Assembly (NCBI GenBank): GCA_030648005.1
Contig: JAUSIP010000016.1
Location: forward strand, 1,110 to 65,109
Direction: 5' to 3'
Length of the DNA: 64,000 bases
Source: a bacterium
Lineage (GTDB): Bacteria > Patescibacteriota > Minisyncoccia > Phycocordibacterales > UBA12445
How positions within the stretch are numbered: the stretch's first letter is position 1; each line of letters begins with the position of its first letter. The position numbers and the translations under genes were made by a program. A model generated the notes under the pieces. It was not told the origin of the DNA. It searched no databases and was given only the letters and a program-made list of their open reading frames with translations. Positions 13,451 to 50,863 of the stretch are shown in pieces.

Positions 13451-14674
13451 ATGGAGAGGCTTAAACAAAAATTACCCGATTCGCCCGGAGTTTATTTCTT
13501 TAAGAAAGGAAAGGGTATTTTGTATATCGGCCGGGCTACGTCACTTCAAAGCCGTGTTAGAAGTTACTTTAATAAAGAGACGATAAATTCCCGTGGGGCT
13601 TTTATTGCGGGAATGGTTGCAGAAGCTACTTCGCTAGTTTGCAGACAGACTGATTCTGTTCTAGAGGCGATAATTCTGGAGGCGGAACTCATTAAAAAAT
13701 ACCAACCAAGATTTAATTCTAAAGAGAAAGATAATAAGAGTTTTTATTATATTGTCGTCACGGCTGAAAATTTTCCTAGAGTACTCATGGTTCGGGGTAG
13801 GAATTTAGAGATGAAAGATAATGATTTCAAAATTAAGAAACTTTTTGGCCCTTTCCCATCCGGCACAGAATTGAAGGAGGCACTCCGAGTCATCAGGAAA
13901 CTTTTCCCATTCAGAGATAAATGTTTGCCAAATTCAGGGAGATCTTGTTTTAACCGCCAAATAGATCTATGCCCGGGTGTTTGTATTGGAGAGGTATCTC
14001 GTGTTGAGTATAAAAAGCAGACTAAAAAAATAGAACTATTTTTGTCGGGCAAGAAGAAGACTGTGATCAGCTTACTTAAGAAGGAGATGAATATTTTTGC
14101 GAATAAAAGAGAATTTGAAAGAGCCGAAATTACAAAAAGAAAGATCTTTGCACTCGAACATATACAGGATGTAAGCTTGATAAAGAGAGAGTCGGCAATA
14201 TTACCGGATTTTGGCGAAAAAAATAAAATATTCAGAATAGAAGCATATGATATCGCACATCAGAGCGGGACGAATAATGTCGGGGTGATGGTTGTCTTAG
14301 AGAACAATGAACCCAATAAGGAAGAGTATAGGAAGTTTAAAATAAGAGGGGATTATCCATCTGATGATTTGCGATCATTGCGCGAGGTGTTGGAGAGACG
14401 GCTGAATCATCCCGAGTGGCGCTTTCCTGACTTGATAGTCGTCGACGGAGGCAAACTTCAGGTGGCTGTGGCGGAAGATATAATGAAGCGCGATGGTCTG
14501 CTTATTCCAATTGTTGGTGTAGTCAAAGATGAACATCATAGGCCTAAGAATATTTTGGGAGATGTTGAGATAATTAAAAAATATGAAAGAAAAATACTGC
14601 TGGCCAATAATGAGGCGCATAGCTACGCTATCAATTATTTTAGGAAACTAAGTATTAAGAGTATGAAGGGATAG
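13451..14674 (+). CDS. uvrC: Excinuclease ABC subunit C, short form lacking the C-terminal (HhH)2 region
   Basis: It has a GIY-YIG N-terminus (GVYFFKKGKGILYIGRATSLQSRV), a UVR-like helix (KREFERAEITKRKIFALEHI) and an endonuclease domain (RIEAYDIAH). Length is 407 aa. Confidence 0.85.
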   Translation: MERLKQKLPDSPGVYFFKKGKGILYIGRATSLQSRVRSYFNKETINSRGAFIAGMVAEATSLVCRQTDSVLEAIILEAELIKKYQPRFNSKEKDNKSFYYIVVTAENFPRVLMVRGRNLEMKDNDFKIKKLFGPFPSGTELKEALRVIRKLFPFRDKCLPNSGRSCFNRQIDLCPGVCIGEVSRVEYKKQTKKIELFLSGKKKTVISLLKKEMNIFANKREFERAEITKRKIFALEHIQDVSLIKRESAILPDFGEKNKIFRIEAYDIAHQSGTNNVGVMVVLENNEPNKEEYRKFKIRGDYPSDDLRSLREVLERRLNHPEWRFPDLIVVDGGKLQVAVAEDIMKRDGLLIPIVGVVKDEHHRPKNILGDVEIIKKYERKILLANNEAHSYAINYFRKLSIKSMKG

Positions 14675-14716
14675 ACTTGAAACTTACAGTTTCAGTACCC
14701 GCGATTGGGTTTTTTA
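14675..14716 (+). terminator. uvrC terminator region (two hairpins plus T-run)
   Basis: GAAACT-TAC-AGTTTC, then ACCC-GCGATT-GGGT followed by TTTTTT. Confidence 0.45.
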
Positions 14717-14731
14717 ATTCGCTCCGCTCTT

Positions 14732-14752
14732 AAAAAAGCCTCAATCGGGCTT
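14732..14752 (-). terminator. Putative terminator downstream of tRNA-Leu(CAA)
   Basis: The minus strand reads AAGCC-CGATTGA-GGCTT followed by TTTTTT. Confidence 0.4.
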
Positions 14753-14817
14753 CAAGTCTCTCACAGAAGACACTTAGGTGTCTTCTTCCGCGTCAAAATT
14801 TCACTTCGTTCAATTTG

Positions 14818-14900
14818 TGCCGCGGGAGAGACTTGAACTCTCACGAGGTTGCCCCCGATAGATTTTGAGTCTATTGCGTCTACCATTCCGCCACCGCGGC
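14818..14900 (-). tRNA. tRNA-Leu (anticodon CAA)
   Basis: Acceptor is GCCGCGG/CCGCGGC. Anticodon arm is ATAGA-CTCAAAA-TCTAT. It has a long variable arm and T arm GAGAG-TTCAAGT-CTCTC. Confidence 0.9.
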
Positions 14901-50024: not shown

Positions 50025-50049
50025 AAAAAAGTGGAGAAGTCCACTTTTT
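50025..50049 (-). terminator. Terminator of the minus-strand tRNA-Glu transcription unit (bidirectional shape)
   Basis: AAAAAGTGGA-GAAG-TCCACTTTTT lies 13 nt downstream of the tRNA 3' end. Confidence 0.75.
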
Positions 50050-50061
50050 CTTAACGTTTGA

Positions 50062-50133
50062 TGACCCTACAGAGAATCGAACTCTGATTTAAGCCTTGAG
50101 AAGGCTCCGTCCTAACCGTTAGACGATAGGGCC
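50062..50133 (-). tRNA. tRNA-Glu (anticodon CTC)
   Basis: Acceptor is GGCCCTA/TAGGGTC. D arm is GTCT-AACGGTTA-GGAC. Anticodon arm is GAGCC-TTCTCAA-GGCTT. T arm is CAGAG-TTCGATT-CTCTG. Confidence 0.9.
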
Positions 50134-50149
50134 AAATTGTAAACTAACT

Positions 50150-50362
50150 GCGACCAAACTCTGATTTCCTCCTTACAGGAGCGGTACACCTTTCGCACCC
50201 TACGGGGATGCTCAAGGTCTTGCAGTTGGGTCCCCAAGCCCAACCTCACCTCTCGAAGGCCGTGTCCTAACCGATAGTCCCGACCCCACAGGGTCGAGGA
50301 TCCTCGATTTTATGGAGATTTCGCTGTAACGAAATCGTAATAAAATCGGGAACGATAGGGCC
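50150..50362 (-). ncRNA. tRNA-Glu-derived structured RNA or tRNA pseudogene carrying two large hairpin-rich insertions
   Basis: Three blocks match tRNA-Glu (nt 1-11 at 11/11, nt 12-25 at 13/14, nt 39-54 at 13/16). They are separated by 74-nt and ~80-nt self-complementary inserts. The T-arm 3' strand and the acceptor 3' strand are missing. Confidence 0.45.
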
Positions 50363-50389
50363 GTTACTGTGAAACTATTCTAATATAAC

Positions 50390-50417
50390 TTGCCAAGAAT
50401 GTAAAATATGATAGTAT
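50390..50417 (+). promoter_or_regulatory. Putative promoter of the nuclease gene
   Basis: TTGCCA-16 nt-TAGTAT, followed by tandem AAAGGAGG SD motifs. Confidence 0.4.
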
Positions 50418-50446
50418 GAGAAAGGAGGTTTGTAAAGGAGGTCGTT

Positions 50447-50863
50447 TTGCCCCGCAAGAACAATGAGGAGCTCCGAAGGAAGGATCTCCCTAGTGGTAAA
50501 AAAAAGACCCGTTCACGCGGATGCCGAAGCAGAAAACCCAACAATAAGGTTAACCGCGGGAGATATTGGGAGGAGCGAATGGCTAAGCTCCTGGACGATA
50601 ATAACATCAAGTACACAGCCAATAGATCATTTAAAACGGTTAATAAGAAAGGATATAGAAACCATAGGGAAGTTGATTTCTGCCTCCATGAAGATCTAAG
50701 TGTCTTGCGACGAGAACATCCGATCCGGTACATTGAAGTTAAGAGTGGAAAACTAGATAGAGACCAGCAGGAGGATCTTCGTAATGCTGGAATTTATACC
50801 GACATTATCATCCCCCTAGACATAATCTATTGGGAAATACATGGTCTTTCTTTGCAGAAATAA
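50447..50863 (+). CDS. PD-(D/E)XK nuclease-fold protein with a ~45-aa Lys/Arg-rich N-terminal tail
   Basis: It has a TTG start 5 nt after GGAGG. REVDFCL (Asp) and YIEVKSGK (E-x-K) fit the PD-(D/E)XK motif, preceded by a GRYWEERMAKLL helix. Confidence 0.5.
   Translation: MPRKNNEELRRKDLPSGKKKTRSRGCRSRKPNNKVNRGRYWEERMAKLLDDNNIKYTANRSFKTVNKKGYRNHREVDFCLHEDLSVLRREHPIRYIEVKSGKLDRDQQEDLRNAGIYTDIIIPLDIIYWEIHGLSLQK

Follow-up and report, generated by a model that had tools for sequence, protein, structure and literature searches.

What is the structured segment of about 229 nt that lies directly ahead of an intact tRNA-Glu(CUC) gene in contig JAUSIP010000016.1, and is it connected with the small nuclease-like protein that is encoded divergently from it? 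We analyzed this locus within a 64-kb stretch of the contig (hereafter, the window, meaning the whole stretch) and compared it with related loci, which are labeled by L-numbers (L001, L124 and so on). The relatives that were found all belonged to the Patescibacteria, or candidate phyla radiation (CPR), such as Paceibacterota and Vogelbacteria. The segment is probably a disabled, promoter-proximal copy of tRNA-Glu that hosts a small mobile or formerly mobile non-coding element, which we refer to as element E.

A probable disabled tRNA-Glu copy ahead of tRNA-Glu(CUC)

The preliminary description, which was made from the sequence of the window alone, had placed an intact tRNA-Glu(CUC) at 50133-50062 on the minus strand and, directly 5' of it, three blocks of tRNA-Glu sequence separated by two hairpin-rich inserts. 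ARAGORN and Rfam (RF00005) both recovered the intact gene. The three blocks proved to be collinear, with 11/11, 13/14 and 13/16 matches to the tRNA, and a gapped alignment of this pseudo copy with tRNA-Glu gave a score of 52, compared with 21 ± 4.6 and a maximum of 46 for shuffled sequences. The second block extended beyond the 13/14 match of 50277-50264 (CTATCGGTTAGGAC) to nt 12-25, as similarity ran on to nt 34 at position 50255. As had been described, the segment derives from tRNA-Glu, contains structured inserts and is unable to fold as a tRNA; a canonical tRNA has both acceptor strands and a complete T arm, and the pseudo copy lacks the 3' half of the T arm and most of the acceptor 3' strand. 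The acceptor 3' strand had been reported as absent, and most of it is indeed lost, although TGGTCGCA, which follows GAGTT, may be a weakly matching remnant of the 3' acceptor end after a deletion of ~13 nt. The adjoining spacer TAGTTTACAATTT resembled, weakly and by eye, TAGTTTCACAGTAAC, which sits 5' of the pseudo copy. When the locus was checked with ARAGORN and Rfam, only the intact tRNA was called, and the upstream segment (50362-50134) was assigned to no tRNA or other family by ARAGORN or, at E<10, by Rfam. The first insert retained its reported extent of 74 nt (50351-50278), while the second, previously put at about 50250-50173, was better bounded at 50254-50173. It is this second insert that represents element E; it interrupts the copy after nt 34, with the tRNA resuming at about nt 37-39.

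Consensus scans revealed one promoter and one terminator for the whole arrangement, and the scan of the locus found no minus-strand terminator between the pseudo copy and tRNA-Glu. The intact tRNA-Glu(CUC) would therefore carry a long structured 5' leader, in that the pseudo copy and the gene appear to form one transcription unit and the tRNA would be made with ~229 nt of leader; RNase P would have to remove this leader to give functional tRNA-Glu(CUC). The promoter in L001 matched that of the window and stood directly 5' of an uninterrupted tRNA-Glu, which indicates that the pseudo copy occupies the ancestral position of the gene. L003 and L004 likewise had this promoter, or an equivalent one, running straight into intact tRNA-Glu. 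The central block of the pseudo copy fitted the tRNA-Glu of other lineages (18/18 for L005 and 15/15 for L003) better than its own neighboring tRNA-Glu, so a recent simple local duplication is unlikely and the copy does not look like a fresh local duplicate.

The whole leader folded somewhat better than shuffled sequences (z-score of -2.8). Insert 1 alone reached -34.9 kcal/mol (z = -5.2). Neither 0.95 Mb of related loci nor the rest of the window contained a homologue of it, and as judged from this distribution it is a lineage-specific hairpin. L124, L048, L116 and L058 have hairpin inserts of unrelated sequence at roughly this site (after nt 11). By sequence similarity, neither insert recurred in other parts of the window. 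We also compared window positions 50090-50337 with two Logan contigs of SRR13727527 (L002 and L008), an independent assembly of the same organism, and observed breaks at both edges, inside insert 1 and inside the intact tRNA; these may have arisen from shared tRNA k-mers or from population heterogeneity at the locus.

A simple explanation of such a segment would be plain decay, that is, a tandem tRNA-Glu duplicate that accumulated random indels without the involvement of any element family. Tandem tRNA-Glu genes do occur (L007), insert 1 has no relatives and the spacer is similar to the upstream leader, but insert 2 is homologous to 13 other copies that have covarying helices and lie at different genes and in different classes. 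Decay is therefore contradicted for insert 2 and possible for insert 1 and the T-arm deletion, and as an account of the whole segment we regard it as very improbable.

Insert 2 recurs as a structured repeat

The preliminary description had offered a decaying duplicate invaded by hairpin elements as one option; together with that of an integration scar, it came closest, and only comparison showed that insert 2 belongs to a multi-copy family. Scanning a genome collection with the tRNA-Glu 5' sequence yielded at least 120 loci, mostly from Patescibacteria, and nine loci among the matches listed had a second GGCCCTATCGT 46-302 nt 5' of the intact tRNA-Glu. L124 (Parcubacteria GW2011_GWA2_43_11) repeated the design of the window. 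Its nt 1-11 come first, followed by a hairpin insert and by the D block with the anticodon 5' strand; TTCGAGARGTGA then leads to a hairpin, CAARACCTT and a variable hairpin, after which RGTGTACYGCWCCTGTAAGGMGGA and a spacer precede the intact tRNA-Glu. Its E copy was homologous, block by block, to that of the window (copy 1). A hidden Markov model built from these two leaders also matched sequences away from tRNA-Glu 5' ends.

We then used a covariance model (R1), built from ten E copies and covering helices P2 and P4. Across ~0.94 Mb of Patescibacteria DNA, this model identified 14 copies with E<=2e-4, including four (L026, L032, L092 and the first L087 copy) from outside the seed; two copies lay in the window, both beside tRNAs. 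Copy 1 was matched at 50165-50224 with 47.5 bits and E of about 1e-8, the E-values being rough because the model calibration was shortened. In the alignment of the 14 copies, 83.5% of the cells were paired compared with 58.9% in shuffles, and none of 500 shuffles reached the observed values. Both sides changed in 10 of the 13 pairs, and both helices (P2 and P4) covaried; as a control, sliding the partner columns reduced pairing to 34-60%. This alignment was fitted to the model, which favors structure, and the MAFFT alignment of the seed alone gave the same picture. Two trinucleotides were nearly invariant, UAC of the junction and GUA of the P4 loop, and there was no open reading frame (ORF) inside E.

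A search of Rfam 15 gave no match to E in two contexts (the window region and the E-bearing tRNA-Val locus of L095), where only the tRNA was found at E<10, and a full-text literature search returned nothing like E, finding instead the group I introns of Patescibacteria tRNAs (PMC13011429). E is a small, folded, non-coding repeat element that constitutes an apparently undescribed family across Patescibacteria. Matching with a relaxed regular expression for the 3' motif of E was no better than chance (28 matches compared with 33-42 in shuffles), and copies were counted only from the covariance model and from full-context matches. Two further scans were set aside: scanning viral contigs with GTGTACYGCNNCTGTAAGG gave five matches inside coding regions without any other E motif, which we attribute to chance, and the metagenome pattern GGCCCTATCGT-N59-89-CTATCGGTTAGGAC retrieved nothing but a pair of neighboring tRNA-Glu genes within a tRNA array (L007), a false positive.

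Targets and layouts of element E

Copies of E were found 3' of intact tRNA-Glu, at its T loop and 3' end (L026, L032, L044, L087 twice, L092 and L113); 3' of intact tRNA-Val (L041 and L095); at tRNA-Leu (window copy 2); inside a truncated 5' copy of tRNA-Ile that lies 5' of intact tRNA-Ile (L066); in the anticodon loop of tRNA-Glu (window copy 1 and L124); and at the 3' end of ftsZ (L084). In the last case, in which the identity of FtsZ was confirmed, E lies just after the stop codon and is flanked by a ~38-nt direct repeat of the end of the gene. The genomic context was read for 13 of these copies, namely all except the first L087 copy (1583-1650), whose context was not read in detail. In 13/13, E was co-oriented with the target gene and adjoined two copies of the target in direct orientation, one intact and the other partial.

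Two layouts were evident. The downstream copies begin at the end of the intact gene (X), which is followed by a trailer, often with the gene's terminator, and by the reverse complement of the acceptor 3' strand. Next come Ha, which is a conserved hairpin of 9 bp, a stretch that is the reverse complement of the T loop and the 3' strand of the T stem, and GAC. The element ends with P2 enclosing a variable P3, GGUGUACUG, the P4 5' strand, UGUAA and X', a direct partial copy of the 3' part of the gene whose first 4-5 nt form the P4 3' strand. Ha and the core were homologous across targets, and Ha carried compensatory changes between the orthologous L095 and L041 copies. In contrast, the arms that flank Ha followed the local gene: they matched the local tRNA at 12/12 positions, even where the T stems of tRNA-Glu differ, and foreign tRNAs at 4-10. 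The arm of window copy 2 likewise matched its own tRNA-Leu at 12/12 and other tRNAs at only 4-6. The arms and X' folded as a rod resembling an acceptor/T-stem stack (z = -5.9), and copy 2 folded at z = -4.8 relative to shuffles. In the upstream copies (window copy 1, L124 and L066), the order is promoter, tRNA 5' part, E, tRNA remnant, promoter-like spacer and intact gene. By eye, the 5' module of these copies (GTGAG, P1 and TGCAAGAC) resembles a degenerate GTGACCCTA, Ha and ...CGAAGAC. The features of the window are collected in Table 1.

Table 1. Positions of the features of the tRNA-Glu locus and of the second E copy in the window.
Feature	Positions	Strand	Basis or remark
Intact tRNA-Glu(CUC)	50062-50133	-	ARAGORN; Rfam RF00005, 60.3 bits
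Promoter-like TTTACA-17-TAGAAT, ahead of the pseudo-tRNA leader and tRNA-Glu	50377-50405	-	Consensus scan; kept in L001
Pseudo-tRNA-Glu nt 1-11 (GGCCCTATCGT)	50352-50362	-	11/11 against intact tRNA
Insert 1, 74 nt, hairpin-rich, in the D stem between nt 11 and 12	50278-50351	-	Folding
Pseudo-tRNA-Glu nt 12-34 (D loop, D stem 3' strand, anticodon stem 5' strand, then TTC)	50255-50277	-	19/23 against neighboring tRNA, by eye
E copy 1 (insert 2), 82 nt, at the anticodon loop	50173-50254	-	Covariance model; homology to L124
E copy 1, 5' module: GAGAGGTGAG-P1 hairpin-TGCAAGAC	50254-50217; P1 50244-50225	-	
E copy 1, P2/P3	about 50216-50187; P3 50211-50195	-	
E copy 1, junction GGTGTACCG	between P2/P3 and P4	-	
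E copy 1, P4 hairpin with TGTAA loop	50181-50169	-	3' strand extends 4 nt into the block 50172-50157, as the first 4 nt of that block
tRNA-like sequence resumes, nt 39-54 (GGAGGAAATCAGAGTT)	50157-50172	-	13/16 against tRNA; AAATCAGAGTT exact
Possible acceptor-end remnant (TGGTCGCA) and leader-like spacer (TAGTTTACAATTT)	50134-50156	-	Alignment; weak, by eye
Intrinsic terminator of the tRNA-Glu unit	50025-50049	-	Terminator scan
138-aa PD-(D/E)XK-fold protein with basic N-terminal tail	50447-50863	+	Own promoter 50390-50417; starts 84 bp from the pseudo-tRNA
E copy 2, directly 3' of tRNA-Leu(CAA) (14900-14818)	14684-14792	-	Covariance match 14676-14755, 61.7 bits
E copy 2, arms complementary to the tRNA-Leu 3' part	14792-14787 and 14762-14751	-	Flank Ha
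E copy 2, hairpin Ha	14786-14765	-	Followed by P2/P3, GGGTACTG and P4
Partial direct copy of the tRNA-Leu T arm after E copy 2	14683-14668	-	

The window has a GC content of 42-46% and contains a ribosomal-protein/rpoA operon at 45.3-49.4 kb (infA, S13, S11, S4, rpoA, L17, L13 and S9). The region of copy 2 (14668-14900, minus strand) abuts a convergent uvrC-like gene that ends at 14674.

Several individual loci deserve description. In L084 (4250-4400, minus strand), the stop codon TGA of the gene-attached repeat overlaps the conserved 5' GTGAG of E, and the displaced copy ends with TAG; the last ~13 ftsZ codons are duplicated, including the conserved C-terminal peptide. In L087 (1583-1835, plus strand), a single tRNA-Glu is succeeded by two tandem E copies, and a partial tRNA 3' copy comes after each of them; a truncated 5' leader is also present upstream. 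Approximately 160 nt 5' of tRNA-Glu in L122 (complete genome CP174359.1), we observed GGCCCTATCGT-GCAAAA-CGACGATAGGGCC, in which the 5' end is followed by its own reverse complement; the same pattern of target and then inverted target also occurs next to E copies. Moreover, three loci contain small ORFs for GIY-YIG nucleases (Pfam E of 1e-11 to 1e-15). In L048 (3638-4011) and L116 (4816-5170), the ORF is situated between a truncated 5' copy of tRNA-Glu and the intact gene and reads into the intact tRNA; in L058 (1446-1836), it is located just upstream of a truncated copy and reads into that copy. Their location at the equivalent place in L048 and L116, or abutting the scar in L058, suggests that the tRNA-Glu loci of this phylum attract more than one kind of selfish insert.

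Mobile element, leader or ribozyme

From this distribution, E is probably a present or former mobile element and not an ancient cis element, the partial target copies would arise at insertion, and the leader itself would have no function of its own. E would lodge beside or in a target gene of which an intact copy remains, so that the gene stays functional. Candidate routes are mobilization in trans by a recombinase, insertion during double-strand-break repair with fold-back synthesis, which is considered because several inverted copies are centered on the terminator hairpin, and targeting by base pairing. A more specific proposal takes E as an insertion element that has no gene, or as a ribozyme-like RNA, with a target that base pairing specifies or that is copied into the element. 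A conserved core (Ha, P2/P3, the UAC...GUA junction and P4) would then be flanked by exchangeable arms complementary to the local target, whether the T arm and acceptor strand of a tRNA or the 3' end of ftsZ. This proposal seems unlikely to us.

Several observations weigh against a mobile origin. Copy 1 alone folded no better than shuffles (z = -1.5). No pair of filled and empty sites was found among close relatives, the flank-based search being swamped by tRNA matches. No recombinase, transposase or reverse transcriptase was present near any copy examined: Pfam identified ClpB, UvrC-like, ParB, RelA/SpoT and TopA proteins near copy 2, and the ORF lists of L124, L066 and L084, read by eye, contained no obvious recombinase. 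The option of an integration scar at tRNA-Glu was accordingly borne out in that an intact and a partial copy flank the insert, but not in the presence of a recombinase nearby. Loci differ in the point of insertion and in the side, upstream or downstream, on which the partial copy is found, so no single simple integration model fits all copies. In several downstream copies, an intrinsic terminator stands between the tRNA and E, which suggests that the conserved pairing may act at the DNA rather than the RNA level. The leader design shared by the window and L124 would also fit a cis-acting function. Finally, all comparison loci were fetched through a tRNA-Glu pattern, and the target spectrum and frequencies are biased accordingly.

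Such a cis-acting function deserves to be weighed in its own right: the pseudo-tRNA and E could form a functional cis-acting leader or small RNA for the maturation, stability or expression of tRNA-Glu, for example through competition for the acceptor 3' strand or tRNA mimicry, and would then be conserved by usefulness and not by spread. The window and L124 share one design in different genomic contexts, the helices of E covary, and the first 11 nt can pair with the 3' acceptor strand of the real tRNA in the minimum-energy fold. The rod formed by the arms and partial copy of the downstream elements, with its likeness to an acceptor/T-stem stack, is consistent with this idea, as is the recurrence of truncated tRNA-Glu leaders without E in L028, L087, L095, L104 and L107. 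However, the leader is missing in the closest relatives by nuclease synteny (L001, L003 and L004) and was present at only ~5-8% of the 120 tRNA-Glu loci among the matches listed; E is also found behind terminators and once behind ftsZ, and insert 1 is confined to the window lineage. We therefore consider a cis-acting leader rather unlikely. The E-less leaders lie 5' of tRNA-Glu, and their D arm is replaced by a small palindrome (TCTAAC-CNA-GTTAGA...), a design common to distant genomes.

The co-orientation of E with its target in 13/13 copies raises the further alternative of a tiny intron or a self-cleaving or self-splicing ribozyme, in which P4 and the arms would set the processing sites and UAC/GUA could form a compact pseudoknot. 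The P4 3' strand coincides with the first 4-5 nt of the resumed target copy, P4 covaries, UAC and GUA are nearly invariant, and group I introns are common in the tRNA genes of Patescibacteria (PMC13011429). Yet no Rfam ribozyme or intron matched at E<10, E is far smaller than group I introns, the truncated host copies could not give a tRNA once E was excised, an intact copy of the gene is always adjacent, and several copies are 3' of terminators; this alternative is improbable.

The preliminary description had also suggested a tRNA gene with non-canonical introns or a split tRNA, and neither could be upheld, as there was no group I match, the host copy is truncated and the neighboring tRNA-Glu is complete on its own. 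A group I intron was rejected in particular because RF00028 gave no match at E<10 (window region and L095), E is only 82 nt and the host copy is truncated. The ends also disagree: group I introns follow U and end with omega-G, while E starts after ...TTC and ends with ...TGTAA. If the whole 229 nt were an intron at position 11/12, a single nucleotide of the repeat would have to be U and G at once. A bulge-helix-bulge (BHB) intron or split tRNA was judged unlikely, the host copy having lost the 3' half of its T arm together with much of the 3' acceptor strand and lying beside a complete gene. Other identities were dismissed. The boxes of a C/D-box guide RNA were not conserved; in the case of a retroviral-type primer-binding site, the complementarity extends into the trailer and so was copied from DNA instead of matching mature tRNA; and the sole similarity to a GIY-YIG gene was a short GGTGTAC string.

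The divergent PD-(D/E)XK protein

The 138-aa protein encoded 84 bp away had been credited with its own promoter, GGAGG motifs, a basic tail and a PD-(D/E)XK nuclease signature, and all of these were borne out. The NCBI annotation comprises only 94 aa, from an internal ATG at 50579. In the closest homologue (L001), the Lys/Arg-rich N-terminal extension is kept open with in-frame indels and has its own GGAGG motif, and the extension is also present in most family members, which makes the 138-aa reading reasonable. The family is small, with 20 cluster representatives among 1.8 billion proteins, and D77, E97 and K99, which form the D...E-x-K triad, are invariant. AlphaFold with the family alignment gave a model with a mean predicted local distance difference test score (pLDDT) of 82 and a core above 90, and the core adopts the order alpha-beta-beta-beta-alpha-beta; a single-sequence AlphaFold2 model (pLDDT 43) was not used. 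No Pfam or NCBIfam model reached threshold for the protein. By predicted fold and conserved motif, it is a member of the PD-(D/E)XK nuclease superfamily. The same core and triad are found in Vsr/DUF559-like nucleases, the minimal PD-(D/E)XK nucleases of the VRR-NUC type and RAP domains, from which this family differs in its Lys/Arg-rich N-terminal tail, its tandem two-domain members and the lack of a family model at threshold. Four members with two tandem domains (P0003, P0006, P0008 and P0010; 259-317 aa) hint that the single-domain form works as a dimer.

Is the RNA a partner, decoy or substrate mimic of this protein, as had been proposed, or is the protein a homing endonuclease behind the scar? 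In favor of a link, the RNA and the protein gene adjoin and are read in opposite directions away from each other, the fold is similar to those of Vsr and I-Bth0305I-type nucleases and of RAP RNA-binding domains, and GIY-YIG ORFs lie in or next to equivalent tRNA-Glu scars (L048, L116 and L058). Against such a link, the homologues in L001, L003, L004 and L005 face a plain divergent tRNA-Glu with no pseudo copy and no homologous insert. The tRNA-Glu is intact and unaltered in L003, L004 and L005, and the contig of L001 holds only its first 29 nt, uninterrupted; in L006, a 230-nt gap is followed by a 76-aa ORF at the contig end, with no tRNA in that stretch. A DedA/VTT gene always follows the nuclease gene (L001 and L003-L006), and this synteny held in six loci at 34-64% identity, a pattern of vertical inheritance. 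Together with the plain tRNA-Glu in relatives, it indicates that the adjacency is inherited gene order. The proposed co-occurrence of the RNA and nuclease was not observed: no nuclease homologue was found at the 120 other tRNA-Glu loci among the matches listed, including every other E locus. In a separate search for related loci, the nuclease pair gave no match in genome or metagenome contigs. The nuclease neighbors the RNA with no detectable functional link, and a link of either kind is the least probable of the readings considered. A free-standing homing endonuclease was rejected in view of the conserved DedA synteny and the intact, unaltered target tRNA-Glu in relatives. In L005 (912-1850), a 940-nt gap separates tRNA-Glu from the nuclease homologue and contains no Rfam hit, E copy or called gene.

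Significance

The genomes of Patescibacteria are tiny and thought to hold few mobile elements. The E family would represent hidden structured non-coding repeats that colonize tRNA genes without inactivating them and to which standard annotation is blind, as they are missed by Rfam, ARAGORN and gene callers. It accounts for odd partial tRNA copies in Patescibacteria and may also account for assembly breaks at tRNA loci and for long structured tRNA leaders. The match of the arms to the adjoining gene means either that the target was copied in at insertion or that pairing directs insertion, and the latter, if true, would be a new kind of guided insertion: programmable, nucleic-acid-guided lodging in essential genes that regenerates them, in bacteria with minimal genomes. 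The tempting pairing of RNA and nuclease is removed by these results, adjacency alone having been misleading here.

Comparison with known systems

Integration of an element leaves one complete and one partial tRNA copy at its opposite ends (PMC9897764), and crossover sites lie in anticodon or T loops according to Williams 2002, as cited in PMC9897764. The E loci resemble such attachment-site (att) scars, or gene-less derivatives of the kind seen in cis-mobilizable elements (CIME), in that complete and partial direct target copies flank the insert, insertion is in or near the anticodon and T loops, tandem arrays occur (L087) and the target stays functional. In contrast, the insert is only 80-230 nt without an integrase or any ORF, no site-specific recombinase is adjacent or encoded, one core recurs at several tRNAs and at the 3' end of ftsZ, a conserved hairpin splits an inverted copy of the local target, and the partial copy may be a 5' part that lies upstream of the intact gene.

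MITEs (miniature inverted-repeat transposable elements), repetitive extragenic palindromic (REP) sequences and REPINs, Rickettsia palindromic elements and Correia elements are, like E, small, non-coding, multi-copy, hairpin-rich and intergenic, and they also occur in reduced genomes. E falls within the MITE description as a multi-copy non-coding sequence of <600 bp, and lacks element-specific terminal inverted repeats and a fixed short duplication. Its terminal inverted pairing instead uses target-derived sequence that differs by site, its direct repeats are 16-40 nt and variable in length rather than 2-10 bp, it is strictly co-oriented with the target gene, and no partner transposase is known.

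Finally, we compared E with the group I introns of Patescibacteria tRNA genes (PMC13011429). E differs from these in having no RF00028 match, a length of ~80 nt rather than >200 nt, a truncated host copy and an intact intron-less copy alongside. The two share the phylum and the kind of host gene, window copy 1 also lies in the anticodon loop, and both are structured RNAs that pair with flanking exon sequence.

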